From positions 160,001 to 224,000 of the forward strand of contig CAXXUO010000004.1 of NCBI GenBank assembly GCA_963666485.2: 64,000 nucleotides of DNA. The letters run 5' to 3'. Below are positions 6,066 through 49,587 of the stretch, piece by piece. The translations under genes were made by a program, and so were the position numbers. The notes under the pieces were generated by a model that saw only the letters and a list, made by a program, of their open reading frames with translations, did no database searches and was not told the origin of the DNA. The stretch comes from Syntrophorhabdaceae bacterium. Its GTDB lineage: Bacteria; Desulfobacterota; Syntrophorhabdia; Syntrophorhabdales; Syntrophorhabdaceae. Each line of letters opens with the position of its first letter. Within the stretch, counting starts at the first letter, position 1.

Positions 6066-6109
6066 GCCAAATAAAAAAGGCCGGAGCAATCCGGCCTTTT
6101 TTATTTGGC
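6066..6109. terminator. Intrinsic terminator with A-tract and T-tract (bidirectional shape) ending the hbd-crt-thl-DUF35 operon
   Basis: GCCAAATAAAAAAGGCCGGA-gcaa-TCCGGCCTTTTTTATTTGGC perfect inverted repeat. Confidence 0.85.
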
Positions 6110-6238
6110 GGCGTACGGCGTACGGCGTACGGCGTACGGAAAAAATATCCAGATTGTTACACTATACTGCCGCCCTTTCGCCTTCCGCCTTTTTGCTTTT
6201 CACCGTCAGCCGTACGCCGTCAGCCGTACGCCGTTTTT
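6109..6238. repeat. Inverted heptamer tandem-repeat element 1: (CGGCGTA)4 ... (CCGTCAG/CCGTACG)4
   Basis: Left arm 6109-6139, right arm 6203-6234, ending CCGTTTTT. Confidence 0.85.
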
Positions 6239-6379
6239 TAATCAACATTTTCAAGCCTTATCCCCCACCCCTTACCCATCACCTGTCACCTTCCCTTCCA
6301 TATCCCTGTAAAGATTATTTTTTATCACGCGCATATTTTGTTTCCTGTATCGGAGAATATAGTGTAAAATCATCTCGAT

Positions 6380-6997
6380 ATGCTTAGGAGACTTATCGCC
6401 TCGGCCCTTTTTATCGCGCTTCTTTTGCCCGCCATTCCCCTTTTTGCCAGAGACACGGTCGTGCGCAAGATCATCGATGGAAATACGGTCCAGCTCGAAA
6501 CGGGAGAGATAGTGAAGTACATCGGGGTGGCGGCGCCCGAGATGAACAAGAAGGAAGGGCCCGAGTTTTACGCAAGGCAAGCGGTGAACTACAATAAGAA
6601 ACTCGTTTTTATGAAGAAGGTCAGACTCGAGTTTGATGCGAAGAGGAAGGACGAGAAAGGCAACATGCTCGCTTATGTCTTCGTCAAAAAGACGCTGGTA
6701 AATGCGGAACTCATACGGAACGGCTGCGCACGGGCGGAAGTTCAGCCTCCTAACCTGAGGTATAAAGACGCCCTCCTCGATGCGCAGAAGAAGGCGATGT
6801 CCGAGGATAAAGGCATCTGGGCCGAGAAAAAGAGAGACACGGAAAAATACTATGTCGGCAACAAACGGGCCTCCATGTTTCACAGGCCGTCATGCAAATT
6901 GGTCGAGAAGATACCCGACAAGGGCAGGATCGTCTTCCATAGCAGGAGCGACGCAATAAAGATAGGTTACGTACCATGCAAGATATGCAAGCCATAG
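6380..6997 (+). CDS. Secreted thermonuclease (SNase) family protein with C-terminal Ada-type Zn-binding domain
   Basis: Signal peptide, IIDGNT, YIGVAAPE, LAYVFV, VNAELIRNG; C-terminal YVGNK..FHRPSC..GYVPCKICKP. Confidence 0.82.
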   Translation: MLRRLIASALFIALLLPAIPLFARDTVVRKIIDGNTVQLETGEIVKYIGVAAPEMNKKEGPEFYARQAVNYNKKLVFMKKVRLEFDAKRKDEKGNMLAYVFVKKTLVNAELIRNGCARAEVQPPNLRYKDALLDAQKKAMSEDKGIWAEKKRDTEKYYVGNKRASMFHRPSCKLVEKIPDKGRIVFHSRSDAIKIGYVPCKICKP

Positions 6998-8481
6998 CCG
7001 AAGAATATCTCCGCTACTGGGGCCTTGAGCACCACCCTTTCCTCCTGGCCCCCGACGGTCACATGATGTGCGTTACGGGCCAGTACTTCGAGTGTTACGA
7101 GCGCCTGAAATATGCGATCATGACAAACAAGGGCGGTGTCCTTATCGCATCCGAAGAGGCGGGGCTCGGCAAGACAACTATACTGCTCAAGCTGATCGAA
7201 GACATGACCGAGGAGCACGGCAAGAATTTCCGGTACGCCTATATCGATCATCCCACTGTTAGCGCCGACGAGATGATCGGGCAGATAACGGAAATGATAA
7301 GCGGTATACCCGCTTCGGAAAATAAGATCCAAAACCTGGCGACCCTCAAAAATGCCCTTATCGCCGGTAAAATGGAAGGAAGCCGGAACATTATCGTCGT
7401 CGACGAAGGGCAAATGCTCTGCGACGCCCGCCCTGTGCTGCAGGAATTGCGGGCACTCATAAATCTGACCCATCACGGCCAGTACCTTCACACGTTTATC
7501 CTGTCCGGACAAAAGGCGCTCTGGGACACCCTGCAGGAAATGCCCGAGTTCTGGCAGAGGCTGCCTGTCCGCTATTATCTCACACCGCTGCGCTTTGAAG
7601 AGACGCGCGAAGTGATCCGATATCGTCTCAACAAGGCCGGCCTCGACGTAGCTCGCGAGCTATTCACCGATGAGGCCATCGAGATCATCCATAAATATGC
7701 GCAGGGCCTGCCGCGGACTATTATAGCTGTTTCCGATCTCGCTCTCCTCACCGGTTATAACGACAAAACACGAAAGGTGGGCTTCAAAGAGGTCACAAAG
7801 GCGATCAATTCGATGAGCGGCAGGGGCGAGACCATGCCGTATGTTATATCGGACAAGAATGGCAATGGCGGGGAATCTGCTTCACGGGTGGCCGAAGCGT
7901 TTTCCACCCGGAATGGCTTATCACCTGTTGAAAACACATCCCGGCCCCCCGGCAGGGGTTTTTTCGATTCGGTGCAGGCTCTACGGCCAGTCATTATTGT
8001 ACTTCTTATAATCACTTTCATCTTCATAGGTGCATTGGGTTACCGCTTGTTCTCGTCCGCGATCACCCCTCCGCCGCCAAACACTGTTATAATCAAGGAA
8101 GTGGAAAAACCGGAAGCGCCCAAAAAACCCGCCCCCGCCACTCCCCCCGTACAAAATGCGGAAGAACCCGCCAAGACAGAGCCGGCGGGCCAACTGTCAT
8201 TTGAACCCGGTTCTCAGAAAGACATCATAGAGTCCTTCAGGGAAGAGACCAAAAAAAGGCGTGAAGCAAGCCGATACGCGGTTATCACAGTGGAGTCCGC
8301 AAACGTTCGCAGTGCCCCCGACATTGGATCCTCACGGATCCTGACGATAGTCCGGGGTGAGAGGCTTGCCATTATCGGGGAGAAGGAAGACAGTGACGGA
8401 ATGAAATGGTACAAGGTAAACCTGTACGGCAGCCGGACCGGGTGGATCGCATCGATAGTGGCGGAAGCGAAGAACAGATAA
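6976..8481 (+). CDS. ExeA/GspA-like AAA ATPase with TM segment and C-terminal SH3b domain
   Basis: YWGLEHHPF N-terminus, AGLGKT Walker A, IIVVDEGQ Walker B, GLPRTI; one TM helix, Pro-rich linker, ANVRSAP...WYKV...GWI SH3b. Confidence 0.82.
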   Translation: MQDMQAIAEEYLRYWGLEHHPFLLAPDGHMMCVTGQYFECYERLKYAIMTNKGGVLIASEEAGLGKTTILLKLIEDMTEEHGKNFRYAYIDHPTVSADEMIGQITEMISGIPASENKIQNLATLKNALIAGKMEGSRNIIVVDEGQMLCDARPVLQELRALINLTHHGQYLHTFILSGQKALWDTLQEMPEFWQRLPVRYYLTPLRFEETREVIRYRLNKAGLDVARELFTDEAIEIIHKYAQGLPRTIIAVSDLALLTGYNDKTRKVGFKEVTKAINSMSGRGETMPYVISDKNGNGGESASRVAEAFSTRNGLSPVENTSRPPGRGFFDSVQALRPVIIVLLIITFIFIGALGYRLFSSAITPPPPNTVIIKEVEKPEAPKKPAPATPPVQNAEEPAKTEPAGQLSFEPGSQKDIIESFREETKKRREASRYAVITVESANVRSAPDIGSSRILTIVRGERLAIIGEKEDSDGMKWYKVNLYGSRTGWIASIVAEAKNR

Positions 8482-8604
8482 ACGGTTCAAAGTTCAAGGT
8501 TCAAAGTTCAAGCAAAAAATCCCCCATCAAAAAATTATGTCTCTTTGAGGCTTACGTAAGTTTTTTTAACTTTGAACTTTGAACTTTGAACCTTGAACGG
8601 TCTT
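8482..8604. repeat. Inverted heptamer element 2: (GTTCAAR)4 ... (YTTGAAC)4
   Basis: Arms 8485-8512 and 8571-8598; fills the whole gap between two convergent stop codons; ends GGTCTT. Confidence 0.88.
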
Positions 8605-10494: not shown

Positions 10495-10516
10495 GGGTGG
10501 GTAAAATATAACATAA

Positions 10517-10773
10517 AAGACGGGCAATAGGCGATAGGCAATAGGCTATGGGAAAAACAGAGATCTTTTCCATCATTTTGGTTGTTCCCTATCGCCTATC
10601 GCCCATTGCCCATCGCCCGTCAATAGCCTATGGGAAAAACAGGGATCTTTTCCGTCATTTTGGTTGTTCCCTATCGCCTATCGCCCGTCAATAGCCTATG
10701 GGAAAAACAGGAATCTTTTCCATCATTTTGGTTGTTCCCTATCGCCTATCGCCTATCGCCCATCGCCCGTCTT
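10517..10773. repeat. Composite heptamer element 3: three 40-bp cores joined and flanked by GGCGATA/TATCGCC-type heptamers, with AAGACGGG...CCCGTCTT termini
   Basis: Cores GGGAAAAACAG..ATCTTTTCC.TCATTTTGGTTGTTCCC at 10550, 10632, 10700. Confidence 0.9.
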
Positions 10774-10811
10774 CTCTTGACTTCCCCCCTCCGCATATGA
10801 TTTATAAATGC

Positions 10812-11567
10812 ATGGAAAAGATCAAGACTATATACAGCCCCGTATTCCTTACGGATTATCCCACTGTCGATTGCGAGAACCCCGGCAGGGTCGAATTCAT
10901 CCATGCCAAGATAAAAGACATCGTAGATCTTATCGAACCGGAACCATGCACCCTGTCCGATCTCGCCCTGTGCCACAGCGACGCCCTGATCAAGACCGTC
11001 CAGCGGACGAAGGAAGTTTTCGACACCGCGGTCCTTGCCGCCGGCGGAGCGATGATGGCTGCGGAGATCGCACTGAGGGAGCCGTCTTTTGCTCTTATCA
11101 GGCCGCCCGGACATCACGCCGGACATAATTTCAATGGCGGGTTCTGCTTTTTCAACAACATGGCGATCGCCGTCAAGAACCTCCTGGCACATGATACGAT
11201 AGAAAGTGCACTGATAGTGGATATCGATCTCCATTACGGGAATGGTACGGAGGATATCGTAAAGTCCGATCCCCGGATCGCATTCCGGAACATAGACGCC
11301 CGTTCAAGAGAGTCTTTTTTTCAGGACCTCGAGGAAGCCCTCACGGATGCATCGAAGTTTGACATACTGGGATGCTCGGTGGGCTTTGACACGTACATCA
11401 GGGACTGGGGCGGCCTCCTGTTCGGAGAGGATTACCACAAGGTCGGCTCTATGCTCGTTACCGCCAATCGGCGCCTGTTCTGCCTCCTCGAGGGCGGCTA
11501 TTATGTAGCAGACCTCGGGATCAATGCCCAGTTTCTCCTCCAGGGCATCCTGAAGGCTTGTTCGTAG
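10812..11567 (+). CDS. Histone deacetylase family (AcuC/AphA-like) protein
   Basis: RPPGHHA, GGFCFFNN, DIDLHYGNGT, GFD, LEGGY; the ORF-track extension upstream runs through the repeat. Confidence 0.9.
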   Translation: MEKIKTIYSPVFLTDYPTVDCENPGRVEFIHAKIKDIVDLIEPEPCTLSDLALCHSDALIKTVQRTKEVFDTAVLAAGGAMMAAEIALREPSFALIRPPGHHAGHNFNGGFCFFNNMAIAVKNLLAHDTIESALIVDIDLHYGNGTEDIVKSDPRIAFRNIDARSRESFFQDLEEALTDASKFDILGCSVGFDTYIRDWGGLLFGEDYHKVGSMLVTANRRLFCLLEGGYYVADLGINAQFLLQGILKACS

Positions 11568-13813: not shown

Positions 13814-13827
13814 ATGTGGTCTGCCGT

Positions 13828-15360: not shown

Positions 15361-15433
15361 ATCTATTCTCTCTTGTCTTGCACTGCAGTTTTATCATTAA
15401 ACGAAAATGACCGTCCACAAAAATCTGACCCGG

Positions 15434-16333: not shown

Positions 16334-16370
16334 TTGACATCCCTGCTATATAATCACTAAATTACCTGAC

Positions 16371-17102: not shown

Positions 17103-17137
17103 TAAAGAAAGTCGGCGGGAGCAACACCAGAAAAACC

Positions 17138-17165
17138 CTGGATTCCGGCCTTCGCCGGAATGACG
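17138..17165 (-). repeat. CGTC-type REP-like palindrome (single copy)
   Basis: Reverse complement CGTCATTCCGGCGAAGGCCGGAATCCAG matches the 49.2-49.6 kb copies. Confidence 0.8.
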
Positions 17166-17178
17166 ACAGGGCCACAGA

Positions 17179-17328
17179 AGCCTTTAGCCTTTAGCCTTTA
17201 GCCTTTAGCCTTTAGCCGTTAGCCTTTAGCCTTTAGCCTTTAGCCGTTAGCCGTTAGCCGTTAGCCGTTAGCCTTTAGCCTTTAGCCTTTAGCCGTTAGC
17301 CTTTAGCCTTTAGCCGTACGCCGGTCTT
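17179..17328. repeat. Heptamer array element 4: about 20 x AGCC(T/G)TT, ending CGCCGGTCTT at the rpoH stop
   Basis: Direct reading of 17179-17318. Confidence 0.92.
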
Positions 17329-18225: not shown

Positions 18226-18236
18226 ATAAAGCGCCT

Positions 18237-19235: not shown

Positions 19236-19242
19236 CGATCAT

Positions 19243-20070: not shown

Positions 20071-20083
20071 GCCCGAAACCTCG

Positions 20084-27468: not shown

Positions 27469-28312
27469 TCACCTTCCCTCCCGATATGGTCCGTCAATGA
27501 TTCCAAGCCTGCGCAATACCTTCTCCAGGTCCTCGATCAATCGGGCCCTGTTCTTTATCGATTCTTCGTCCTCGATAATATAGGGCGCGTCCTCCTCTTT
27601 GGGAACCGCCTCTTCTTCTATTTTTACCGGCTCTTCGGCAGGTTTGCCTTCGCATATTAACGGACCGGTCCCGGTGCTCTCACAGGTAAGCTCTTCATCG
27701 GGTACCTGTGCCGGGCTTGAAGGCACCAGGCTCCGGGACGGCCTCAAGGACAGGGCCGGCGGAGGATTCAAGCTCTATGACCGCCGGGGGTTCCGGACCA
27801 TCAACTGCAGGGATTTCAGTTTCGGGGACCGCTGAGACCTGAGGCCCGGGGACTATGGTAGATTCAGGTTCGAAAACCCTGTCAGGTTCGGGTTCCGGAA
27901 TTTGACAGCAGTTCGGGGCTCAGGAGCCGCAACGAGTTTCAGGTTCGGGAGTCAAAAGCGATTCAGGTTCGGGGACCGCGGGCGGTGGCTCAGGGGGTGC
28001 TGTCGTTTGATCTTCGGCCGGAAGAGGTCCGGATGCCTCACCCGACATGCCGGCACTATCATATACGTCAAAGACTGCGCCATTTCTTACCGCGTAGTTA
28101 AGGGCGGGGAGCAGCGATTCTCCGTCGTAGACATTAATATTCCCCGACCCGGAGATCATCTGGAAACCCCGTTGTCTTCCCGTCTCTTAACGACAGGGAC
28201 CCAATCCTGTCCCCCGGCCCTGCTGAAGACATCTAGAGAGCCGGTGTAGCCCTCCTTCTTCAGTTTTTCAAGAAACTGGCCCAAAAAGGACGGGATTCAT
28301 GTTGAGCATCAT
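27469..28312 (-). pseudogene. Frameshifted hypothetical protein: small alpha/beta N-domain, Pro/Glu-rich linker, C-terminal amphipathic helix
   Basis: GAGG-5nt-ATG at 28312; reconstructed MMLNMNPVLFGPVLEKLKKEGYTGSLDVF..ISGSGNINVYDGESLL..PEPPPAVPEPE..KNRARLIEDLEKVLRRLG needs several single-base removals. Confidence 0.5.
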
Positions 28313-28336
28313 GTCGACCTCGTAGCTCGCGTATGA

Positions 28337-31300
28337 TCAGGTCATGACCACATCGATCCTGCGCACGGCCGAACTGCGTGCTTGCTATTTCCTCGGGCCT
28401 GGCCGCCCGGTCGAATGTGGCCATGAGGCACGCTAAATATTGTCCCGGTGCCAGGTTTCCTGTCGAAAATGAAAACGTACCGGAACAGGAACCGTCCTCG
28501 GCAAAACACGACCGGGGGGCGTGAGCGTCTGTTTCTTTTCCCTGCCGTCCATCGTGAGAATGGCAACTTCGACCAGCACCCGCCGTGATATCAGCCCCGT
28601 CCACCGGTGATGATCTTATAGTAGACGGTTTCCGGCAGGCCTTGATATATCGGACTTGGCTGTGCCATTATCGTGGCGTCGAGAAGTATCGTTAAGCCAA
28701 TATCAACAGGGGCATCCTTGTTCAACACAGCCGCCGGGCCGGCCTTTTCAACACCTCCCTGCTTTACAGGAGCCCCCGCAGGCGGTACGGCGTCGGGGCT
28801 TTTTCAAAAAATCGTGCTCAACGAAAAACTCCGCGATCGCTTCTGCCAGGTCTTCCTCCCCGTCGGACAGGACAACGCGCGCCCTGTGATACCCGGGAAA
28901 TGCCGATGTGAGGTTGAGCACTATCCCATCTATCCGTTTATCTACGCCTGGCGGGAAGTTAATGCCCCTGCGTGAGGCCTGCTGGATGATGGAACCATCG
29001 GCGTCTTCGATACTGGCCGTCAGCCGGGCGGTTTTCTCGGAATTGCTGACGTTCTTGAAGGGAACACCCGATACTCACGTTGTCGCCCCGCTGTAAATAC
29101 GTCATCGTTGAGATCGATGGAAGAGATGACACGACGAGGGCAGTACGTGGACGTGGCAGGGGCCGAATTCCCTGTGTATGGCGACACCCGCCGGCGTCCG
29201 TGTATGTTATGTGCAACGAATCGCTGATAACGCGTTCTTCCCCCGGGCGGGGGCCGAGCACCGTAACATTGAAGAGCGTATCCTCTTTCTGGCCAACTCT
29301 CAAGCTCTTCAGGTCCCATTCCACGGTGATCGTGTCGCCGTTCTTCTCGAGCCGGGTCCGGTTTCCCGCGTAAAAGATGCCTGGTCCACCATGACGTCGG
29401 GGCCGCCGATCGAGGTTGTGACGCGGACATCCTCCATCGGCTTCACGGGAAAAGGTGAATAATAAACGGGGTGTGGAGAAATACCGGGTAGCTTTGTCGG
29501 CACCCCTGTGCGTCCATATCCAGTTGGCTTCGAGGTCGATCCCGAAGAGGGTCGACCACCGACCCAAGCCCGTTCTTGCCGATCGAAACGGACCGCCCCC
29601 GGGGTGCCCCCAAACCGGTCGAGATATGAACCACCAGTGATCTTCCGAAGTCACGATCTTCTGCGTACCATCCGCAAAATGAAAATTAGGGTCGTTCAGG
29701 GTGAGGTCGCGCGATAAACGCCGGGACCGGTCCCTTCGTATCGACGCACTTTACATGGAGATAGTTGGTAACGCCGGGGACAAGGCAGGCATTGATGCTC
29801 TGGAGTGGATGCCCATCCCTGGCCCTTCCCGACCAGCGTGCCCTCCTCCGATTCGTCCTGGCTGACGTACAGGGAAAATAGATCGTTCGACGTAATATTG
29901 GCCGTAACGGACATCGACGAATAGGAGCATATCTTCACGACCCGGTCCGCATAAGAAGGGGATCATCCAGATGCAGTCACCGTCAAAAACGCCTCCCGTG
30001 AATGCATTCACGCCCTTGTGGAAGCCCTGCGGCCAATCGTGAAGCTCAAAAACCTCACCGGTGTCTTTGTCGATCCTGACGACGCGGTCCGCATTGAGGG
30101 GGACCATCCATAGGGACCGGGCCGTCGAAGGCGCCGCCGGAAAAGGCATATTCGGTCTTTCCCATCTCGGCCGGCCTCGGGTGATGACCGGTCATGCGGC
30201 CGTTTGACGTTGTCCATCCTGACGACCTGTTCCGAATAATACGGGACCATCCATAGGGACCGGCCGTCGAAGACGCCGCCGGAAAAGGCGTATTCCACCA
30301 TCGCGTGCCCTTCGGGCCACTCGTTATAATCTTTTCATTTCAGCCGTCACGGTGTCGAACGCGATCACGCTGTCTGCATTTGCCGGGATCATAAAAACGC
30401 TGCGGCCGTCGAAGGCGCCGCCGGAAAAGGCATGCCCGCCCTTTGCAAAACCTTCGGGCCAATTATTGTAGGCCGTCATATCACCGCTTATGGTGTCGAT
30501 CTTTACAACACTGTCCGCATAAGACGGGACCATAAAGATCGACCGGCCGTCGAAGACGCCGCCGGCGAAGGCCTGCTCGCCTTTCGTAAAACCCTGGGGC
30601 CACGCATTGTACGATGTCATCGCGCCATTCGTTATGTCGATCCGTATGAGGCCCTCGGCATTTCCCGGAATGAGCCAGACATACCGGCCGTCGAAGACGC
30701 CGCCCGAGAACGCCTGGTTGCCCTTGCGGAAACCCTCCGGCCATTGACCGTATGCCGTCATTTCCCCCGTGTTCCTGTCAACCTTGACGACGCTGTGGGC
30801 ATTTGCCGGTACCATCCAGATGTGCCCGCCATCAAAGACTGCGCCGGTGAATGCCTGGTTGCCCTTGCGAAAGCCGGTGGGCCACTGGCCGTAGCCGGTC
30901 ATGAACACACGCTCGGTGAGCGGCTTCGGCGCTATCGCCCCGCTGAAGCCGAACCCGTCCTGGTTGAAGACAGGAGGGGATACCCGGTTCGCTACCAGTT
31001 CATTAACAAACGGTATAAGGGGTCTTCCGTCGACGCATACCAGATCCTCGGACGAAAGCGAGATATATATCTGTGCGCCCTCGGAGACCGCATCTTCGAG
31101 CATCAGTTTAAGGGTCGTGATGTCGGGAATATCGAGAGAAAGGTCCTTTATGACAACGGGACTCCCATCGACTGTCACGGCAAACCGTGATTCATTCCCC
31201 GTCGGGTCCGCCATTGCCTTGTCGCAGGTTATGTATATCGCGTCCCCCACGGTGTTCGTCCGCGCATGCACGATGGACGGGTTGGCCGTGATCCCGACAC

Positions 31301-36291: not shown

Positions 36292-36500
36292 TGAAAAAAA
36301 TCATCATCTTTGCTGTAAAGCTATACAGGGTGACATTCTCCGCTTTTTTGCCGGTCCAGTGCCGGTATTTCCCGACCTGTTCCCAATACATGATCGAAGC
36401 CGTTGAAAAGAAGGGCGCCTTAAGAGGAACGCTCCTCGGCATCAAGCGGATATTAAAATGCAATCCTCTCTTCCCGGGCGGATACGACCCGGTACCTTAA
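36291..36500 (+). CDS. yidD: Membrane protein insertion efficiency factor
   Basis: [24 protein letters not shown]. Confidence 0.95.
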
Positions 36501-36513
36501 CCGGAGGTAACGA

Positions 36514-38103: not shown

Positions 38104-38116
38104 GGATGATACACTC

Positions 38117-38941: not shown

Positions 38942-40298
38942 GACCATATGTGCCGTCTCTACCCCACCCGGTGAAGGCGGGATAAACATAATTCGCCTGA
39001 GCGGACCGAACGCTCACCGCATACTCGACACTATCTTCAAACCCAGGAACAGATCGAAAAGATCGACGGCAGGAATGCTGCGCCTGGGGTATATACGCGA
39101 TCCCGGGACGGGAAACGATATAGACGAGGTCTTTGCCGTCCTTATGAAGGCACCGGGAACATACACGCGCGAGGATATTGCAGAGATCCATTCCCACGGG
39201 GGATTCGCTGCCCAGTCCGCGATAATGAAGGCCATACTGGCCCAGGGGGCCCGGCTTGCCGAGCCGGGCGAATTCACAAAACGGGCGTTCCTGAACGGAA
39301 GGATAGACCTGGTGCAGGCGGAGTCGGTTCTCGACGTCATCAAAAGTGAGACCGATGAAGAACTGGAATATGCCGTCAGCTACCTGAAGGGGCGCCTCTC
39401 GAAAAAACTGCACGGGTTCCGTGATATTCTCAAACATGCCCTGGCTGCCCTTGAGGCGTCTATCGATTTCCCCGAGGAGGACATCGATATCGACTTTTCA
39501 GGGCACCTGGTATCACTCACCAGGGCCAGGAAAGAGATCGACGGTCTCGTCTCGTCCTATTATGAAGGCAAGGGTTTCAAGAGCGGGTTCGAGGTATTGA
39601 TAGCAGGCCGGACCAATGTCGGCAAATCGAGTTTCCTGAATGCCCTGGCGCTCAAGGAACGGGCGATCGTAACCGAACTGCCCGGGACGACCCGCGATCT
39701 CATTGAAGAGACCCTGTACATCAAGGGAATGAAGGTGCACCTCGTCGACACCGCCGGCTTCAGAGCACCCGAAAATATCGTTGAGGAAGAAGGGATACGC
39801 AAAGTGAAGGAAAGGGCTGCCACGGCCGACCTCATCGCATGGGTCATCGACGGGTCTCAACCCTACTCCGCTGAGGATCAGCAGGTATATGATGAAATTA
39901 ACCAGTATAATCAAGTCGTTATAATAAATAAATCAGACATTGAACAACTTTTTGATATTAATATACTGAAATCATTAAATGTTACATCGTATCTAAATAT
40001 CTCGGCAAAAACAGGCGAGGGTCTCAGCGAAGCCAAAAACTTAATATTTTCAAAGATATTAAAGACGAGACGGAAAAATTCGCTCCTTATCACGACACTG
40101 CGCCACCGGGACATTCTTCGAAAGGTCTCCGGCAACATCGGGAGGGTTATAGCGGGCCTCACACAAAAAGAAACCCACGCCGAACTCCTGGCATTCGAGC
40201 TCCACGAAGCCCTGCATCACCTTGGGGAAATAACGGGAGAAACCTGTACGGAAGAAATACTGGATACGATATTCGGACAGTTCTGTATTGGAAAGTAA
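38922..40298 (+). CDS. mnmE: tRNA modification GTPase MnmE (start may be GTG 38916)
   Basis: TICAVSTP..IRLSG, PGEFTKRAFLNGR, GRTNVGKSS, GTTRD, DTAG, C-terminal FCIGK. Confidence 0.95.
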   Translation: MPAESAETICAVSTPPGEGGINIIRLSGPNAHRILDTIFKPRNRSKRSTAGMLRLGYIRDPGTGNDIDEVFAVLMKAPGTYTREDIAEIHSHGGFAAQSAIMKAILAQGARLAEPGEFTKRAFLNGRIDLVQAESVLDVIKSETDEELEYAVSYLKGRLSKKLHGFRDILKHALAALEASIDFPEEDIDIDFSGHLVSLTRARKEIDGLVSSYYEGKGFKSGFEVLIAGRTNVGKSSFLNALALKERAIVTELPGTTRDLIEETLYIKGMKVHLVDTAGFRAPENIVEEEGIRKVKERAATADLIAWVIDGSQPYSAEDQQVYDEINQYNQVVIINKSDIEQLFDINILKSLNVTSYLNISAKTGEGLSEAKNLIFSKILKTRRKNSLLITTLRHRDILRKVSGNIGRVIAGLTQKETHAELLAFELHEALHHLGEITGETCTEEILDTIFGQFCIGK

Positions 40299-40380
40299 AG
40301 ACGGTTCCACGTTCCAGGTTCCACGATTTAGGGAAAAGCTTTTCCGTGGAACCTGGAACGTGGAACGTGGAACCTTTTTT
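40298..40380. repeat. Inverted heptamer element 5: AAGACG(GTTCCAS)3 ... (STGGAAC)4
   Basis: Arms 40304-40324 and 40346-40373 around the palindrome GGAAAAGCTTTTCC; between convergent stops. Confidence 0.88.
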
Positions 40381-40887: not shown

Positions 40888-40942
40888 ATCCACTCCTTTT
40901 ATAACGGTTATCCGTTCTCTATACCATATATCGGCCCTTATG

Positions 40943-43144
40943 TCAGTAAGGGTTATTGCGCGAAGAAGGCTCGCCCGGCGTGGGTCGCTCAAGGGGGGCC
41001 GACGGGTCGGCAGGCGCGGGTGCGGGCGCGGAGTACGTGACCGGGAAATCATCAGGAGGAAAGTGGCGCAGTGCCGAACCCATGTAATTCATCCATATTG
41101 GCAGGCAAACGCGGCCCCCGCTTTCGCCCTTCCCCAGTGAGGTCCGTGCATCGAAGCCAACCCAGACCCCTGTCGCGATATGGGGTGAATAACCGACAAA
41201 AAGCGCATCGTAGTAATTGCTCGTCGTCCCGGTCTTCCCCGCGATGGGGTATCCGAGGGCAGATGCTCCCTTTGCGGTCCCGTATTGAACGGGCCCTTTC
41301 AGCAGGATATTCATGGATGCCGCGACTTCTTCCGGCAGGGCCCGTTCCTTCTGAATGACGGTATCTTCGAGGACATTCCCGTTCATCTCTACGACCCTGC
41401 GGACAAAGATCGGTCTTATCCGGCTGCCGCCATTGGCAAATGCGGCGAATCCCTTAACGAGCTCGATCAGGGTGATATTCGATGACCCGAGGGCAACGGA
41501 GAGGTTGCTCGGGACATCCGCATCTATCCCGAGGTCCTTGACCGTTTCCTTCACCGAGGCCACCCCTATCTCCTCGAGAAGCCTCACTGCTGCCGCATTC
41601 TTCGAATAGGCGACGGCGTCCCTCATCGAGATATCGCCGGAATACCGGCCGTCATAATTTTTCGGGGTCCAGCCGCCATAGGATTTTGCCTCGTCGTGCA
41701 GTACGGAGTCCGGGGTATAGCCCTTCTTGAGTGCGGTCACATAGATGAACGGCTTGAATGCGCTCCCCGCCTGCACTTTGGCCGTCGTGGCCCTGTTGTA
41801 CGGGCTTTTTTCGAAGTCGCGGCCGCCGACGAGGGCATAGACAAACCCCGTGTTGACATCCAGACTGACAAGTGCCCCCTCGACCTTCAGCGAACGTACC
41901 GGCTGAAAGAGGAGTGTTTTTTTCTTCGGGTCCTCGCCCGTGCACAACCCCTTCACGACATCGCCCGGCTTGAAGGGGTGGTCATCCATCTTCAGGGTCC
42001 CTTTTTTGTCGCCGACGAACACGGCGTAGCCCTCTTTTATCCGCTCGGATACGAGGAGATTACAGCTCTTTCCCTTCACGGCAGGGAAGAGCTTGAGGTC
42101 ACGCTCCTCGGCCCTCCTGAAATCATCCCACTTCCTGTGGGGCATGCGGTAAAGAACGGTAAATTCGCCGTTCCTCTGCTCGTACTGGTTAAGCCCCCGG
42201 ATTATTGCTCCCTCAGCCGCCTTCTGCATGGATTTATCAACGGCGGCATATATTTTAAAAGCCTTCTGCGAGAGTATGCCCCTGCCGTATTTGGCCTCCA
42301 TGTAGCGAAAGATATGATCTTTGTAATAACTGTCCTGGAAAACGCCGTCATCCTCCCGTATCGCTACCTTTTCCTTGAGGATCTGCTGCTTTGCCTTTTC
42401 ACTGATGAAATTCTTCTGGACCATCTGGTCGACGACGTATTCCTGCCGGATCCGGGCGTTACCCGGGTGTCTTTTCGGCGTATAGCGGGATGGCGCCTGG
42501 ACGATCCCGGCGAGGAGCGCCGCTTCAGCTACCGTGATATTCGAGACATGCTTGCCGAAATACACCTGGGATGCCGCCTCCACCCCGTAAACCCCGTGTC
42601 CCATGTAGATATTGTTGAGATACAGGTTCAGGATCTCGTTCTTGTTGAGGTACGTCTCGAGCTTCCAGGCAAGGATCGCCTCGCGTATCTTCCTGTTCAG
42701 GCTCTTTTCCGGGCCGAGAACGAGAGACTTGATCACCTGCTGGGTTATGGTGCTGCCGCCCTGCGCCATACGCCCGTACATGACATTCTTGACGAAGGCC
42801 CGCAATATGCCGAGCGGATCGACCCCCCTGTGCTTGAAAAAGTCCGCATCCTCAGCCGCGAGAAATGCCGCCCTGACATGCTTCGGTATCTTCTTGTACG
42901 GCACGAAAACGCGGTTGTCGGGTACGAAAAGGTATATCAGCTCATCGTGAGCGTCGTACACGCTTGTAACCGGCTTATTTTTCAGGTCTTTCAGCGCAAC
43001 CACGGAGGGGATGTCATTGATCAGGAAGAAAACGAACGCCGCGACGCACAGGACCCCCGAAGCGATGAGGAGAATGAGAAAGTATTTGAATATCTTTCCC
43101 GAAGAGGTCCTTGGTGCTGGTTTCCTGCGTTGTTCCTGCTTCAA
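40943..43144 (-). CDS. Class A penicillin-binding protein (PBP1A family)
   Basis: AEDADF..H.G, GGSTITQQ, RKIRE transglycosylase; SAFK, SKN, KTG transpeptidase motifs. Confidence 0.92.
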   Translation of the reverse strand: MKQEQRRKPAPRTSSGKIFKYFLILLIASGVLCVAAFVFFLINDIPSVVALKDLKNKPVTSVYDAHDELIYLFVPDNRVFVPYKKIPKHVRAAFLAAEDADFFKHRGVDPLGILRAFVKNVMYGRMAQGGSTITQQVIKSLVLGPEKSLNRKIREAILAWKLETYLNKNEILNLYLNNIYMGHGVYGVEAASQVYFGKHVSNITVAEAALLAGIVQAPSRYTPKRHPGNARIRQEYVVDQMVQKNFISEKAKQQILKEKVAIREDDGVFQDSYYKDHIFRYMEAKYGRGILSQKAFKIYAAVDKSMQKAAEGAIIRGLNQYEQRNGEFTVLYRMPHRKWDDFRRAEERDLKLFPAVKGKSCNLLVSERIKEGYAVFVGDKKGTLKMDDHPFKPGDVVKGLCTGEDPKKKTLLFQPVRSLKVEGALVSLDVNTGFVYALVGGRDFEKSPYNRATTAKVQAGSAFKPFIYVTALKKGYTPDSVLHDEAKSYGGWTPKNYDGRYSGDISMRDAVAYSKNAAAVRLLEEIGVASVKETVKDLGIDADVPSNLSVALGSSNITLIELVKGFAAFANGGSRIRPIFVRRVVEMNGNVLEDTVIQKERALPEEVAASMNILLKGPVQYGTAKGASALGYPIAGKTGTTSNYYDALFVGYSPHIATGVWVGFDARTSLGKGESGGRVCLPIWMNYMGSALRHFPPDDFPVTYSAPAPAPADPSAPLERPTPGEPSSRNNPY

Positions 43145-44883
43145 AATACTATCGAACCTTTTCGGACATCATATGTCCCTGATACCGTTATCCTGAGCTC
43201 TACGATAGAGGTGAAGGTCAAAAAACATGTTGTCCAGACCGGGTCGTCGAGCGTGCTGCCCGAGGTGTGGAGGATGGAATTCAATTTCCCGTAGGCGGAG
43301 CTTATTTCGAGGACGGAAAGGTTCGACATGGTCGAGCCGATGGGAAGGGCAAGTACATCGAGGACCTTTCCTCCTTCGACGACCGCAATGCCGCCATTAA
43401 TGGCCAGTACGGTATTTGCCGCGAGGGCCATATCCTCATCGTCGAAACCGTGAACGATAAGTCCGTGCGTCTCGTGGGCGACGGTCGAAGCGACGGCGGC
43501 GCGTGCACCGAACCCGTAGAGGAATCCCTGCCCCCACTTCTTCTCCTCCCTGCGGCTGTACAGGATCTTCCGGATATCGCGGTCGCGGCTGGGCAGTATC
43601 ACGTTGCCCTCCCTCGGCAGGTCAGCATCCATCCTCTTTGTCACGGTCCTGTCGATGATGCCGATCACAGGTACCGGGCCGGTCTCTTTCCGTTCGATCT
43701 TGAGTTCGGAAGGCTCTACCGACGAAAACGAGTAAGGATAGGACCGGATGTCGCCTTCGAGCCGGGTTGAGCGCTCCCTCGCAAGTACGCCATCGCGCGC
43801 AGCCAGCGTGCCCCTTTCATAGACCATGACAGGTTGAGGCCTCTCAAGGGCCGGGCACAAAAGTATATCGGCGATCCTTCCGGGAGCAACGCTTCCGACA
43901 TCGTGATCAACTTTAAAATAGCGGGCCGGGTTGAGCGTCGTCATCCTGATGGCGTCTTCAGGGCGGATGCCGAAGCCGATCGCCCCGCTCACGATATGGT
44001 CCATGTAGCCTTTATTGACGAGATCACCCGCAAATATACCGTCGGAGACGAGGATGACCGAATCCTTCGGCAGGGAATTGATCGTGGGGCACAGCGACTC
44101 AAGGTCGTTCCTGATGGAGCTCATGCGCACCATGGTATACAGACCGAGTCGTACACGGTTCCTGATGTCGTCCGGCCGGATTGACTCATGGCATGACGTT
44201 ATCCCCGCGGCGGCGAGGGCGTTTAAGCGGTCGTATGACGCGCCCAGGGTATGCCCCTCTGCATTTTTTCCCATCGATCGCGCCAGCAGGATCCGCTGCA
44301 GTATGTCGTCCTCGTTCTTCGTAATCCTGAGATAGGGCGAGACCTCGCTTAAAGACACGCATTCAGGATGGTCCGACAGGAGGCTGAAGACATCATAAAG
44401 CGAGAAGATGTCCCCGCCTTCGATCTCCGGATAAGGGGGATATGTTGCCGGGACCCCCCAGAGATACTTGACATTGAAATGCGGGGCCTGCCTTAAGATC
44501 TCGCGGAAACCTTTGGGGCCAACCGAGTTTATGAGGTCATGGCTGTCCGAGAAGACGGTCGTCGTACCTTTCGTGACGGCGATATCGGAAAATGTGGCGG
44601 GATTGTAGAAAAGGTCGGCATGGCCGTGCGCATCGATGTATCCCGGTATGACGACGAGGCCTTTCGCATCCACAATGCGGGTGTGCGGCCCTGTCCTCGC
44701 CTTTGCCGTCCCCACGTACGCGATCCAGTTACCGGATATCCAAACGTCACCCGGAATGACCTCGCCCGTGAACACGTCGAAGACCGAGCCACCCTCTATG
44801 ACGACATCCGGCGGCTTGTCCGCGGTCGCGACGGCAACGAGGTCTTTCAGGTCCTGTAGCGTCTTCTTGATCATTCCCTGCAT
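43141..44883 (-). CDS. Adenine deaminase family amidohydrolase (YerA-like); start 44883 or 44874
   Basis: PGYIDAHGH, GTTTV, EGH, CHES, VSDG, LNPARYF, APGRIAD, C-terminal Ade domain. Confidence 0.82.
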   Translation of the reverse strand: MQGMIKKTLQDLKDLVAVATADKPPDVVIEGGSVFDVFTGEVIPGDVWISGNWIAYVGTAKARTGPHTRIVDAKGLVVIPGYIDAHGHADLFYNPATFSDIAVTKGTTTVFSDSHDLINSVGPKGFREILRQAPHFNVKYLWGVPATYPPYPEIEGGDIFSLYDVFSLLSDHPECVSLSEVSPYLRITKNEDDILQRILLARSMGKNAEGHTLGASYDRLNALAAAGITSCHESIRPDDIRNRVRLGLYTMVRMSSIRNDLESLCPTINSLPKDSVILVSDGIFAGDLVNKGYMDHIVSGAIGFGIRPEDAIRMTTLNPARYFKVDHDVGSVAPGRIADILLCPALERPQPVMVYERGTLAARDGVLARERSTRLEGDIRSYPYSFSSVEPSELKIERKETGPVPVIGIIDRTVTKRMDADLPREGNVILPSRDRDIRKILYSRREEKKWGQGFLYGFGARAAVASTVAHETHGLIVHGFDDEDMALAANTVLAINGGIAVVEGGKVLDVLALPIGSTMSNLSVLEISSAYGKLNSILHTSGSTLDDPVWTTCFLTFTSIVELRITVSGTYDVRKGSIVF

Positions 44884-45042
44884 CTCATAGGATATTCGAT
44901 TCAATGTAGCCCAAAAGCCCACCGCTTGGCAAGAAATTAGCTTATCACCCGGCGATCATCGAAAGGCCTGAAAACAATACTTGGCATGGAACGGCTTTTT
45001 CAAGTAGAATAAAAATACTTCGACGGGAAAGACATAACCAGC

Positions 45043-46788
45043 ATGGACGCCGCGACAATACGGACACTTCTCGATGTTACGAAGGGTAAGACGCGCCCGG
45101 ATAGCGTCATCATCAACGGCAGGATCGTCAACGTCTTCACGAACCGCGTGGAGGATGGCTCGTCTGTTGTCATAAAAGACGGCCTCATCGCATCGGTAGA
45201 GGATGATGGCAAGGCGCTGGAATATGACGCGCGAGAGGTCATCGATGCCCGGGGGTCGTACCTCTGTCCGGGGTTTATCGATGCGCATACACACATTGAC
45301 AGCCTTTACCCGTTCCATTCACTTGCCCCGTACGCGATCCGCGGGGGCACGACGACGGTGGTGACCGAAACCAGCGCCGTTGCATGCGCATGCGGAATGG
45401 AGGGTGTCAATTCCTTCGTCGAAAGCACGCGGGGCTACCCGGTGCGCTGCTACTTTCTTGCGCCGCCCCTCACCCCTCCCTTCCCCGAAATGGAGGGATC
45501 GAAGGGTCTGAGCCTCGGTGAGTTCAAGAAATTCCTGAAGCGCGATGATGTCGTGGCGATCGGGGAGGCGTACTGGACCCGGATCGTCGAGGGGGACCGG
45601 CGCATCTTGAGCCAGGCCGCGGCCGCGCTTGACCTCAATAAGAAACTGGACGGCCACGCAGCGGGGGCACGCGGCAGACGGCTTATAGAGTATGTCCTGA
45701 CCGGCATCACGTCCTGCCATGAATCGATCACCATTGACGAAGTTATTGAGAAGCTCCGGCTCGGGATCTACATAATGATCCGGCAGGGCTTCGTCCGCAA
45801 GGAACTGCCCGAGCTCAAGGGACTCAAGGACATGGACATCGACGTGAGGCGGCTGATCCTCACCTCCGACGTCTTCGACGCGGTCATGCTCATCGAGGAA
45901 GGCTACCTCGACTCGATCGTCAGGACCGCGATATCGTACGGCTTCAGGCCCATCGACGCGATAAAGATGGCGACGATAAACCCGGCCGATTATTACGGCC
46001 TGCGCCACCTCGGCGCCATTGCACCCCTTCGCCACGCCGACATCCTCTTCCTCGACAGCCTGGAGGACGTCTCGGTGAAAAAGGTCATGGCCGGGGGAAA
46101 GATGGTCTTCGATGCGGGGGAATACATCGGGGATGTGAGGCCCCACCAGTACCCGAAATCCGCGCGCACCACGGTCAAGGCCCGAAAGATCCGCCCTGTC
46201 GATCTCAGGATCGCCTCGGATAAAGGCCCGCGCAAGATACGCATTATCAAGGTGCTCAACCAGACGATAACACAGGAGATGGCCTGGGATGCCCCCGTCA
46301 GGGGCGGATATCTCGAAAAGGACCTTTCAGCCGACATAATCCCCGTTTCCGTGATAAACCGCTACGACAGTTCCGTCAGGGGAAAAGGCTTCATCACCGG
46401 TACAGGCATCAGTCAGGGTGCATTCGCAACGACGCTCATCTGGGACACGGGCAACATCCTCGTCATGGGAAGCTCAGAGGATGATATGGCGAAAGCGGTC
46501 AACCGCCTGATCGATCTCCAGGGCGGCACGGTCATAGTAAAAGACGGTACAGTTATCTTCGAATTCCCGATGCCCGTTTTCGGGACCATGCCGCTCGGAA
46601 GCATTCCCGAGATAGCGGACAAGACGCGGGAAATGGTGGAAAGCATTCGCAAGATCGGCGTGACACTCGAGCGCCCCTTCCTTACCCTCCAAACCATACC
46701 CTTCTCCGGGTTACCCTTCCTGCGCATCACAGATAAGGGACTCGCGGATATCAAACAACGGAAACTGGTACCGTTGTTCATAGAATAA
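45043..46788 (+). CDS. Adenine deaminase family amidohydrolase (second paralog)
   Basis: PGFIDAHTH, GTTTVV, DGHA, CHES, TSD, ATINPA, LPFLRITDKGL. Confidence 0.82.
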   Translation: MDAATIRTLLDVTKGKTRPDSVIINGRIVNVFTNRVEDGSSVVIKDGLIASVEDDGKALEYDAREVIDARGSYLCPGFIDAHTHIDSLYPFHSLAPYAIRGGTTTVVTETSAVACACGMEGVNSFVESTRGYPVRCYFLAPPLTPPFPEMEGSKGLSLGEFKKFLKRDDVVAIGEAYWTRIVEGDRRILSQAAAALDLNKKLDGHAAGARGRRLIEYVLTGITSCHESITIDEVIEKLRLGIYIMIRQGFVRKELPELKGLKDMDIDVRRLILTSDVFDAVMLIEEGYLDSIVRTAISYGFRPIDAIKMATINPADYYGLRHLGAIAPLRHADILFLDSLEDVSVKKVMAGGKMVFDAGEYIGDVRPHQYPKSARTTVKARKIRPVDLRIASDKGPRKIRIIKVLNQTITQEMAWDAPVRGGYLEKDLSADIIPVSVINRYDSSVRGKGFITGTGISQGAFATTLIWDTGNILVMGSSEDDMAKAVNRLIDLQGGTVIVKDGTVIFEFPMPVFGTMPLGSIPEIADKTREMVESIRKIGVTLERPFLTLQTIPFSGLPFLRITDKGLADIKQRKLVPLFIE

Positions 46789-46794
46789 AAACAA

Positions 46795-46915
46795 AAGACG
46801 GTTCCACGTTCCAGGTTCCACGTTCCACGAAAAAGAAGAAACTCCTCTATATCCTAAAAGCTGGGTGGGCCAAGACCCGTCTTTAACGTGGAACGTGGAA
46901 CCTGGAACGTGGAAC
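46795..46915. repeat. Inverted heptamer element 6: AAGACG(GTTCCAS)4 ... (STGGAAC)4
   Basis: Arms 46801-46828 and 46888-46915; same units as element 5 but an unrelated spacer. Confidence 0.88.
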
Positions 46916-46957
46916 TTGCGTCATTTGGTAAAATGATGTTAGTTTGTTTGCCTGTTT

Positions 46958-47905
46958 ATGGAAAATACTATTGAAAGAATGTCGATCGCCGGGACAGTGA
47001 AGGCGTGGGTCACGTTATCGAGGCCCCCGTTTCATACGGTTGGGGTTTTTCCCTTCTTCCTCGGGACGATCCTCGCCTGGAGACTCGATAATGTCTTCAA
47101 TCTCCCGCTTTTCATTTTGGGAACGGTCGCTGTCATATTCATCATGCTGGCAACCTATTATGGCGGGGAGTATGCCGACGTGATGGAAGATAAACTCTCA
47201 GCCTCGATGGACAGGAACGCATTTTCCGGGGGTACCCAGGTCGTTGTCAAGAATCTTCTTCCCCGGCATCACGCTCACGTGGCGAGTTACATCGCCCTCG
47301 GCCTCACCGTCATCACGGGACTCATTATTCAGTTCAAATATGACACCGGTCTCCTCACGATACCACTCGGCGTCATCGGCATACTGGCGGGGTTCTTCTA
47401 TTCAATGATGCCGATCCGGTGGGTAACGCGAGGCGTGGGCGAGATAATCATCGGGTTCGCCTACGGCTGGCTTCCCGTGGCCGTGGCGTATTATCTGCAG
47501 ACGGGCAGGATTCATAGTATCATCAATTATATGTCAATCCCGATCGCGTGCACGGTTTTCAATATTATTCTCATTAACGAATTTCCCGATCATCCCGCGG
47601 ACGTCATCGCGAAAAAGAGCAACCTCGTCGTACGCTTTGGAAAGGCAAAGTCAGCGGTCCTTTATGTTGCCATGCACCTCATCGGCATCGCCGGCTATGT
47701 CGTCTCCGTAACTCAGGGCCTGCCGGTATCGGCGCTCATCTATTATGCGCCGGTCGCGGCCATCTGCCTCTGGTTATGCATTATGGTGGGATCAAAGAGG
47801 TACATGGACAAGAAAATGCTCGAAACCATATGTGCGCTGACCATAGTCACGAACCTCGGAAGCGCCCTTGCCTATATCCTTACCCTCTTTTTCATGAGGT
47901 CTTAG
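46958..47905 (+). CDS. UbiA-superfamily prenyltransferase, MenA-like
   Basis: W..LSRPPF, EYAD..D..FSGG, FFYS..P..RGVGE, INEFPD..D..KSNLVVRFG; multiple TM helices. Confidence 0.8.
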   Translation: MENTIERMSIAGTVKAWVTLSRPPFHTVGVFPFFLGTILAWRLDNVFNLPLFILGTVAVIFIMLATYYGGEYADVMEDKLSASMDRNAFSGGTQVVVKNLLPRHHAHVASYIALGLTVITGLIIQFKYDTGLLTIPLGVIGILAGFFYSMMPIRWVTRGVGEIIIGFAYGWLPVAVAYYLQTGRIHSIINYMSIPIACTVFNIILINEFPDHPADVIAKKSNLVVRFGKAKSAVLYVAMHLIGIAGYVVSVTQGLPVSALIYYAPVAAICLWLCIMVGSKRYMDKKMLETICALTIVTNLGSALAYILTLFFMRS

Positions 47906-49123
47906 ATGGGTCTTTTCGGGAAATGTCCTATAGCGCTCAGGCGAATATTCTGGCCCCCGAGCCTCGTGACAAAACAGCTCGGCAGCGTCCTTCTCTTCAA
48001 GCACCTCGTCAAGTGGGAACACTTCGGCACGTGGCTTTTCAGGCACAGCATGAAATCCCTTCCCGTCGCGGCAGGCGCGTACGGCATGGGATGCATCGGG
48101 TTTCCCGCACATCCCGCATGGGAAGTGACCGGTGCCTGCAACCTGCGGTGCATCCACTGTCACGCAACGTCCGGCAAGCCGGCCCCGGATGAGCTTACAA
48201 CCGCCGAGGCGAAGCGCTTCATTGACGAACTCGCCCTCGCCGACGAGTTCCGGATGCTTGTCTACACCGGCGGAGAACCGCTCGTCCGTCCCGATATCTT
48301 TGAGCTCTTCGAGCATTCCCGCAAGGCGGGTTTCGCGAACGTCATAGCCACGAACGCGACCCTTATCGACGACGCCATGGCAGAGCGGCTCGTAAACGCC
48401 GGGGTCGTGGGAGCCGCTGTGAGTCTCGATTCATCCGTCCCTGAGATACACAACAGGATCCGGGCGAACCCGAATGCCTTCGAACTGGCGATGAGGGGAA
48501 TGAAAGCCATAACGAAAGCGGGCATCCTCCTGCAGATCAATGTCACGGCAATGGAATACAACTTCGACACTTTGCAGGACCTCATCGAGCTTGCCGACGC
48601 GAAAGGCTCCGGCATCATGCTCATGTACCAGCTCGTTCCCGTGGGACGGGGAAGCAATATAGAGAGCGCTACCCTCGATATCACGGAGAACGAGAGGCTC
48701 CTCAATTTCCTGAAGGACAAGCAGAGGGATGTGTCGACGATCGTCGAACCGGTAGCAGGCCCGCAATATTGGCCCTTCCTCATGGAACAAAACGGCAAAA
48801 CAGACGGTATATGGATGAAGATGGCCGAGAAGACATTTCACGGATGCGCGGCCGGCAGGGGTTTTGTATACATCAAGGCGAACGGCGATATCTGGCCCTG
48901 CCCCTTTGTCGAGGTAAGCGCCGGTAATGTGCGCGACCGTTCGTTCGATTCCATCTGGCGGGACAGTGAAGTGTTCGTAAACTTGAGAAACCGCGAGCAT
49001 ACACTGAAAGGCCGCTGCGGCGACTGCAAATACCATGGCATCTGCGGCGGCTGCCGCGGCCGCGCCATGGCACTCACCGGCGATTACCTCGCGGAAGATC
49101 CGTCGTGCTTCATACGTAAATAA
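47906..49123 (+). CDS. Radical SAM/SPASM protein, AhbC/AhbD/NirJ-like
   Basis: CNLRCIHC, TGGEPL, LVPVGRG, SPASM CAAG..NGDIWPC..CGDC..CGGCR..DPSC. Confidence 0.85.
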   Translation: MGLFGKCPIALRRIFWPPSLVTKQLGSVLLFKHLVKWEHFGTWLFRHSMKSLPVAAGAYGMGCIGFPAHPAWEVTGACNLRCIHCHATSGKPAPDELTTAEAKRFIDELALADEFRMLVYTGGEPLVRPDIFELFEHSRKAGFANVIATNATLIDDAMAERLVNAGVVGAAVSLDSSVPEIHNRIRANPNAFELAMRGMKAITKAGILLQINVTAMEYNFDTLQDLIELADAKGSGIMLMYQLVPVGRGSNIESATLDITENERLLNFLKDKQRDVSTIVEPVAGPQYWPFLMEQNGKTDGIWMKMAEKTFHGCAAGRGFVYIKANGDIWPCPFVEVSAGNVRDRSFDSIWRDSEVFVNLRNREHTLKGRCGDCKYHGICGGCRGRAMALTGDYLAEDPSCFIRK

Positions 49124-49128
49124 AAATG

Positions 49129-49156
49129 GTTCAAGGTTCAAAGTTCAAGGTTCAAG
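49129..49156. repeat. Heptamer element 7 left arm (GTTCAAR)4; degenerate right arm near 49441-49470
   Basis: Starts 5 nt after the radical SAM stop; same unit as element 2. Confidence 0.75.
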
Positions 49157-49209
49157 GCTAAAAAAACCGCTACAGTATACCGGCTAACCCCATTCTGCCA
49201 AACCCCCAT

Positions 49210-49587
49210 CGTCATCCCCGCGGAAGCAGGAATCCACCATACTCCCGTCATTCCCGCGAAAGCGGGAATCCAGTGTCTTTGTCTTTTTAGACCGCACATA
49301 GTTTAACCCAAACCCTCCCCTGCATCGTCATCCCGGCGAAGGCCGGGATCCAGTGCCTTTTAATACCCGGTAGAACTTTCTTAAAGACGCTGGATTCCGC
49401 CGCAAAAGCCGGCGGAATGACGAACTAATGGGGCTGTTTCGTTGGACGGTTGGACCGTTGAACCTCGAACCCTCAATAACGTCATTCCCGCGAAAGCGGG
49501 AATCCAGTGTCTTTATCTTTTTATACGGGAACCAGATTACCCCAACCCCCATCGTCATTCCCGCGAAAGCGGGAATCCAGTGTCTTT
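49210..49587. repeat. Cluster of six CGTC-type REP-like palindromes
   Basis: CGTCATTCCCGCGAAAGCGGGAATCCAG and variants at 49210, 49246, 49326, 49390 (inverted), 49480, 49553. Confidence 0.9.

Follow-up and report, generated by a model that had tools for sequence, protein, structure and literature searches.

Short tandemly repeated repetitive (STRR) sequences of cyanobacteria are abundant intergenic heptamer arrays, and the REPIN/RAYT systems and miniature transposable elements with inverted repeats (MITEs) comprise a gene flanked by its own repeats together with many gene-less inverted doublets in extragenic DNA. The GGGAATC heptamer arrays of Xanthomonas are intergenic, show a preference for four units, form 70-75 convergent inverted pairs per genome and are located near stop codons (Rehm et al., 2015, PMC4692102). 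In the portions of that article drawn on here, they are interpreted as formers of G-quadruplexes (G4) with a single unit sequence, no protein partner is mentioned, and the bacterial excess of heptamer repeats is left unexplained. Similarly, the intervening sequence (IVS) of the Coxiella 23S rRNA contains an open reading frame (ORF) of the S23p/PF05635 family, heptamer repeats before this ORF and a 28-bp terminal stem (Warrier et al., 2016, PMC4990558); in the sections of that paper considered here, the function of S23p/TIGR02436 proteins is also unexplained. TAACTGA repeats of the Beggiatoaceae form abundant intergenic heptamer arrays, for which no origin is given in the part of the source used (PMC4679880). 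Here we describe seven intergenic heptamer loci in a stretch of 64,000 nucleotides from a Syntrophorhabdaceae bacterium (the window, G000:C4:160001-224000, where G000 is the source genome of 3.77 Mb) and show that gene-less, heptamer-armed elements of this kind are a real genome-wide family tied to cassettes of a TIGR02436/PF05635 four-helix-bundle (FHB) gene. The geometry is already published for the Xanthomonas arrays and the Coxiella IVS; the link of the protein to genome-wide arrays is unreported in the literature covered (main texts, subscription journals apart), in which no paper connects a TIGR02436/PF05635 protein to such arrays.

A scan of G000 for tandem arrays with periods of 5 to 9 yielded 509 arrays of period 7, as against 1, 22, 19 and 24 for periods 5, 6, 8 and 9, which extends to the whole genome the period that the original prediction had noticed in the window. 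A search with a library of units identified 539 arms, covering 468 of the 509 period-7 arrays, and found none in 1.4 Mb of Markov-3 control sequence. The commonest units are GTTCAAG, GGCTAAC and GTTCCAC. Four units are the mode (294 of 539 arms), in line with the three or four copies first noted; neighboring arms within 300 bp face inward in 147 cases and outward in one, and both arms belong to the same class in 144 of 159 pairs. A degenerate partner accompanies 71 of the 221 arms that are unpaired, and at least 150 of the 221 lack even that. On their outer side the arms terminate in an A-tract with the sequence AAAA(G/A)A(C/T)G. The shared terminus that had been proposed is looser and weaker than claimed, but it is enriched: the exact form AA(G/A)AC(G)G occurs at 85 of 539 arms (16%) versus 0.36% of random intergenic positions, and a looser form precedes 175 of 539 arms (32%) versus 1.2%, being concentrated in the GTT-type arms (141/307, compared with 34/232 of the other arms).

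The elements also have a defined placement. Paired elements occupy 52 of the 245 convergent gaps of at least 70 bp, 79 of 945 tandem gaps and 15 of 387 divergent gaps. The outer arm lies within 12 nt of a stop codon in 104 of 147 paired elements (null mean 57, maximum 71), and TAA constitutes 144 of the 206 stop codons adjoining arms, compared with 42% genome-wide. For 21 of the 119 arms facing a gene start, a -35-like box lies no more than 20 nt from the end of the arm (control mean 4, maximum 10); genes were called with our own ORF scorer, which missed both FHB genes, and distances to starts are approximate. Taken together, the gap, stop-codon and -35 data indicate that the elements take up unoccupied DNA as far as the closest functional boundary. 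The four-unit mode, the convergent pairing and the proximity to stop codons are all shared with the Xanthomonas arrays. On the other hand, the common units of G000 contain no GGG and are not all capable of forming G4, and several classes coexist in one genome and replace each other at orthologous sites. STRR and Beggiatoaceae TAACTGA arrays are mostly unpaired direct repeats, unlike the pairs of G000. No link to an FHB protein appears in the portion of PMC4679880 considered.

Both FHB genes of G000 are located outside the window and sit inside inverted four-unit arms, one pair of the GGCTAAC type and the other of the GTTCAAG type, which are two of the main classes of the genome; copies enclosing ORFs, which the original prediction had suggested looking for, are thereby found, and the seven window loci lack the FHB ORF. 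The closest solved structure to the FHB protein is XCC0516 (2GSC, five chains; E 7.5e-13), which is a homopentamer according to the part of PMC4990558 used here. A family match is present in all 19 other genomes of the genus (G001-G019). In the FHB alignment, the best relative with a name is a metagenome-assembled genome of Syntrophorhabdus, which makes a Syntrophorhabdus-like host likely. Inverted flanks exceed shuffled controls for 31 of 40 FHB genes of the order and for 67 of 75 homologues from many phyla (80 were taken, and five were dropped for short flanks), with an upstream period of 7 in 31, 8 in 18 and 9 in 5 of the latter. An FHB gene of Pseudoxanthomonas carries GGGAATG arms. In addition, FHB protein clades pair with unit classes (3/3 with GGCTAAM, 6/6 with GGYNATR and one subclade with 9-mers). 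The Coxiella IVS has the same protein family, heptamers and a terminal stem; it is described as a single rRNA insert excised by RNase III (PMC4990558, in the part considered), whereas the window loci and both G000 cassettes sit between protein genes and not in a 23S rRNA helix, and the cassettes are accompanied by hundreds of gene-less copies.

Several observations concern the surroundings of the FHB genes. A AAAAGTAATA(T/C) motif, with 12 exact copies in G000, is located 20-60 nt upstream of many FHB genes, of a GxxExxY gene and of a small two-gene module (G000 C2:636098, C1:1409609 and C2:638626, as well as the majority of FHB genes in the genus); it is possibly a shared promoter or operator. 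The GxxExxY gene of G000 has no heptamer arms, and is flanked by a third long palindromic element (CTCGCCCGCTTCGCTC...; C1:1385249-1385718 and around C1:1409219), which in G000 also occupies the site of a 9-mer-armed FHB cassette of G001, G004 and G019. The FHB family is homologous to Avd, the reverse-transcriptase partner in diversity-generating retroelements; no reverse transcriptase stands beside the gene in G000, where PF00078 has no match. One contig of G014 (C103) contains a true Avd-like gene that has no heptamer arms; the sequence after it resembles, by eye, the template of a diversity-generating retroelement.

Comparison with the relatives indicates that sites are retained while units are exchanged, and that empty sites also occur. 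At the window site 10517, both arms are changed together, to GGCAATA in G011 (a single-copy form without internal repetition), GGTNATR in G002, G012, G013, G015 and G019, GGCGTAA in G007, GTTCAAG in G009 and TAGGACC in G004. Site 8482 has other units in relatives (the rows of G002 and G019 were left out of this comparison), site 40298 has 7-, 8- or 9-mer arms or is empty, with gaps of 8 and 19 bp, and at site 17179 an array-free gap of 26-37 bp is found in 8 of 16 relatives. Between G000 and G011, of which 0.65 of 2.6 Mb was compared, 287 orthologous gaps were scored: 29 hold an element in both genomes, 21 in G000 alone (at several of these G011 has, by eye, short or unclassified arrays), three in G011 alone and 234 in neither. 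The unit class differs at 9 of the 29 shared sites, the dominant GTT-class unit is GTTCAAG in G000 and GTTCTAC in G011, and orthologous spacers are alignable in 2 of 15 cases. In a relative that is ~93% alike, both arms of one element are kept and its 51-bp spacer is replaced by 107 other letters, and a solo arm elsewhere is replaced (one contig in each case). The FHB cassettes are themselves flipped or replaced at fixed sites: C9:14460-14683, gene-less in G000, is FHB-loaded in G008, G016 and G019 and flipped in G012, and C3 ~76900, also gene-less in G000, holds two different FHB cassettes in G006 and G007. As for target-site duplication, close relatives provided no clean empty site, and some outer arms have a copy of an 8-9-bp terminus at either side.

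The inner structure of the elements bears on how the arms arise. The spacers, which shade from 49% A to 44% T, have no common interior apart from a second repeat family described below. Perfect mirror arms are absent from both GTTCAAR (0/57) and GGCRATR (0/27) pairs, in which the order of unit variants is no more alike within a pair than between elements (likeness 0.45 versus 0.43 and 0.18 versus 0.16 when shuffled), and the 109 four-unit GTTCAAR arms comprise 47 haplotypes; for the two classes we reject the idea that arms mirror each other exactly or derive from a small set of master copies. GTTCYAS arms, by contrast, do match within pairs, by subtype (0.63 versus 0.41). Slippage has acted on top of this, as seen in a lag-2 correlation of unit variants and in expansions to 10-50 units, and local tandem duplications of an arm plus its tail are common. 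Where classes are stacked they nest, with a cassette-backed class outside the cassette-less GTTCCAC in 11 of 13 stacks and the outer arm often flanked by the terminus on either side. The nesting, the outer position of cassette-backed arms and the unshared interiors fit rewriting of single arms at the A-rich terminus better than transposition of whole elements.

Pattern scans of metagenomes gave no loci in the first round and 21 in the second, none with an FHB gene or from a close relative of G000. In one of the contigs, from an unrelated organism, a lone AAAAACG-GTTCAAA x4 arm is embedded in frame in an ORF of 438 aa (L141:3001-3036, also L137 and L149-L151), which we take to be phosphorylase-like. 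Another (L138) continues after the right arm with the reverse complement of the upstream flank, the same site having a normal flank in L134; this fold-back is either an artefact or a hairpin-born inverted duplication.

If the resident FHB gene governs the arrays, genomes carrying a given variant should be rich in its unit. Triple or double units were counted in the 20 genus genomes as matches per Mb, and carriers of the matching gene rank 1 and 2 for ATRACCA, 1 and 2 for GTTRCGN, 1 for CGTRAAK, 1, 2 and 14.5 for GGCKWAM, 2, 3, 4, 6 and 7 for the 9-mer, and 1, 4, 5, 7, 10 and 11 for GGYNATR; that is, they fill the top ranks for three of six classes. The lowest summed matches are those of G014 (9), G003 (36) and G005 (37), the next genome having 100; these three sit at separate places in the tree, have only frameshifted or non-canonical FHB genes with no intact canonical copy, and show GTT-class counts of 17-24. 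The arms point inward, lie at A/T tracts by stop codons or -35 boxes, recur with other units in relatives and follow the resident cassette in their unit. The genome-wide spread, the match to the arms of the FHB cassettes and the change of unit at the same site make it likely that the elements are gene-less copies under FHB control. We therefore favor, at a probability of roughly 0.55, the reading that the resident FHB variant controls, in trans, the spread and rewriting of the arrays and that the seven window loci are gene-less members of this family. The FHB protein, a homopentamer by homology, would recognize its own repeat unit, and a new arm would be written beside the old A-rich terminus, outside the old arm or in its place. 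The writing would probably be done by host repair at an extruded hairpin, with other arms copied non-reciprocally; the interior would not be carried along and would turn over separately, and selection would spare only those events that leave stops and promoters intact.

A number of observations weigh against this reading. The cassette unit of G017 has not spread (0 matches), and that of G013 has seven matches, all at the cassette itself. Conversely, G000 has 219 GGYNATR matches as well as the GTTCCAC class with no matching gene, G006 (187 CGTRAAK matches) and G009 (235 9-mer matches) also lack the matching gene, and G002 has 194 matches with only broken FHB genes. The relatives are not independent, most assemblies are fragmented, and the patterns were chosen after the flanks had been seen. 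The unit-blind density of arrays is 0 in G017 and 2.9 per 100 kb in G013 despite intact genes (samples of 81-168 kb), in a test whose periodicity scan misses mixed arrays. The agreement between clades and units may reflect simple co-inheritance. Across 71 loci, a scan for a residue-to-base rule found no clean column; as it was not corrected for the tree and sorted invariant columns wrongly, it neither supports nor excludes a code. No FHB remnants were found in element spacers by tblastn, and the papers on the family, in the parts considered, record no catalytic activity. A more far-reaching version, in which the FHB pentamer is the specificity subunit of an undescribed DNA-writing system whose variant dictates a unit of 7-9 bases and has about four copies laid at A/T-tract ends by stops and promoters, either de novo or by guided copying, is tentative, and we hold it to be unlikely. 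If it were true, one small protein family would explain much of the heptamer excess across phyla as well as the ORF-bearing rRNA intervening sequences; FHB control alone, if true, would offer a testable source for the unexplained bacterial excess. The genus constitutes a natural experiment, with several protein variants, several units, genomes that have lost the gene and fixed sites with unit swaps, and the questions of the heptamer excess and of what S23p/TIGR02436 proteins do thereby become direct tests of binding and of array gain.

Other explanations account for part of these data. The original prediction allowed for a structural RNA role as long 3' hairpins, and the pairs might be RNA hairpins that the host has selected at the ends of transcripts, either as terminators working in both directions or as RNase III stems like those of 23S rRNA intervening sequences, with FHB binding them as RNA and host recombination spreading them. 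The stems of the five folded window pairs are strong (z -5.9 to -10.4), convergent gaps are the most occupied, a T-rich run follows most right arms, and the 28-bp stem of the Coxiella IVS, which bears heptamers, is a substrate cleaved by RNase III (PMC4990558, in the part considered). Nevertheless, the sequences lend no support to such a role: G·U versus A·C mismatches do not favor the mRNA strand (80 versus 120 pairs; 15 versus 21 elements, p = 0.4), the mRNA strand folds better in 33 of 69 elements, 15 elements lie between divergent genes, many relatives have no element at the same site, and the arms without even a degenerate partner are numerous. We consider this account doubtful. Neutral concerted evolution, in which slippage and host gene conversion homogenize the units of each genome and the FHB gene hitchhikes in one hairpin, would agree with the lag-2 correlation, the expansions, the arm-plus-tail duplications and the classes without a resident gene. 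It appears quite improbable, as it leaves unexplained why 67 of 75 FHB genes across phyla lie in such arms, why four units, inward polarity and switches of both arms prevail, and why counts are low in the three genomes with broken or missing genes. Ordinary slippage microsatellites have no rule of orientation or copy number and consist of independent loci, which does not describe this family; polarity, copy number, class agreement within pairs, unit swaps at orthologous sites and FHB genes in like arms point to a dedicated mechanism, as the original prediction had suggested.

The family behaves like a pair of autonomous and non-autonomous elements, yet it belongs neither to the MITEs nor to the REPINs. 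As in REPIN/RAYT, a gene lies within its own repeats and many inverted copies are gene-less; the differences are that the Y1 (HUH) transposase is lacking (PF01797 has no match in G000 at E 0.001), the arms are tandem arrays, the interiors are unrelated and the partner family has no known catalytic activity. A classical MITE, copied or cut and pasted whole by a transposase that recognizes the shared terminus, would be consistent with the inverted ends and their loose common terminus, with the presence or absence of elements among relatives, with the gene-bearing and gene-less forms and with the terminus on both sides of some outer arms. However, the spacers share nothing but the second repeat family, arms are diverse and never perfect mirrors in GTTCAAR pairs, the genome-wide arm scan revealed no side-by-side insertions, and the enclosed ORFs encode FHB rather than a transposase, so that among the alternatives this is the one we find least probable. 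Only slightly more credible, and still very unlikely in our judgment, is de novo synthesis, in which the FHB ring guides an enzyme that extends DNA ends, in the manner of telomerase, by some four units and an A-rich tail before the ends are rejoined. Paired arms of the same class with no shared variant order, spacers ranging from A-rich to T-rich, the single in-frame arm inside the 438-aa gene and the homology to Avd would suit it; the lack of a reverse transcriptase in G000, the matching of GTTCYAS arms within pairs, the possibility that perfect mirrors are simply purged and the native-looking terminators often held in spacers speak against it. Compared with these, control of arm rewriting by the resident FHB variant remains the reading that we prefer.

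The seven window loci (Table 1) conform to this picture to different degrees. All have period-7 repeats where the original prediction placed them, and five are clear inverted pairs (6110/6205, 8485/8564, 10523/10590-10767, 40304/40346 and 46801/46888), but the inverted copies described for the loci are lacking at 17179, which is a solo arm, and reduced to a degenerate partner at 49129. Five of the seven adjoin a stop codon, as had been stated: the distance from stop to start of the locus is 0-6 nt for 8482, 40298, 46795 and 49129, and the 17179 array has a stop at its end. At the 6109 locus the stop is 52 nt away, with a terminator-like hairpin ahead of the locus; the 10517 locus lies between two divergent starts. 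A scan of the window with Rfam at E<=1 returned one tRNA and chance miRNA-like hairpins only, with no match to Gut-1.

Table 1. Heptamer-armed features of the window (positions counted from its first nucleotide).
Feature	Position	Strand	Remarks
Left arm, GGCGTAC x4	6110..6137	+	directly after terminator-like hairpin 6075-6102
Right arm, GGCGTAC/GGCTGAC x4 (6205-6232)	6176..6237	-	terminus 6231-6237; two degenerate inner units 6176-6189; fold z -5.9
Gene-less element, GTTCAAR x4 (8485-8512), 51-bp spacer, inverted GTTCAAR arm (8564-8598)	8479..8604	.	fills gap between convergent stops of ATPase gene and selB
Gene-less GGCRATR-class element with one arm on left (10523-10550) and two on right (10590-10617, 10740-10767)	10517..10773	.	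second right arm arises from 68-bp tandem repetition inside element; selB and next gene start divergently on either side; ends just before TTGACT -35-like box
Solo expanded arm, ~20 units GGCTAAA/GGCTAAC, array 17179-17322, no inverted partner	17179..17328	-	outer end at rpoH stop; inner end joins palindrome of second repeat family
Gene-less element, GTTCCAS class (40304-40324, 40346-40373)	40296..40380	.	convergent genes; terminus overlaps mnmE stop
Gene-less element, GTTCCAS x4 per side	46795..46915	.	6 nt after adenine deaminase stop
Left arm GTTCAAR x4 (49129-49156), degenerate right arm ~49440-49471, ~280 bp away	49124..49471	.	interior holds palindromes of second repeat family

The second repeat family is a palindrome, GTCAT(T/C)CC...GGATCC/GGAATCC, with 419 motif hits in G000; it is located inside 27 of the 159 heptamer pairs and, in the window, at 17139-17164 and 49211-49580. 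It brackets three short GIY-YIG genes in inverted orientation (C3:93284, C3:76010 and C1:77120), and, judged from the sequence, the palindromes and these genes would represent a parallel system with loaded and empty forms. Elsewhere in the window, two adenine deaminase paralogues are divergently transcribed at 43141-46788, and a region of ~2.5 kb without called genes (27726-30324) contains dispersed TTCAGGTTCGGG-like repeats.

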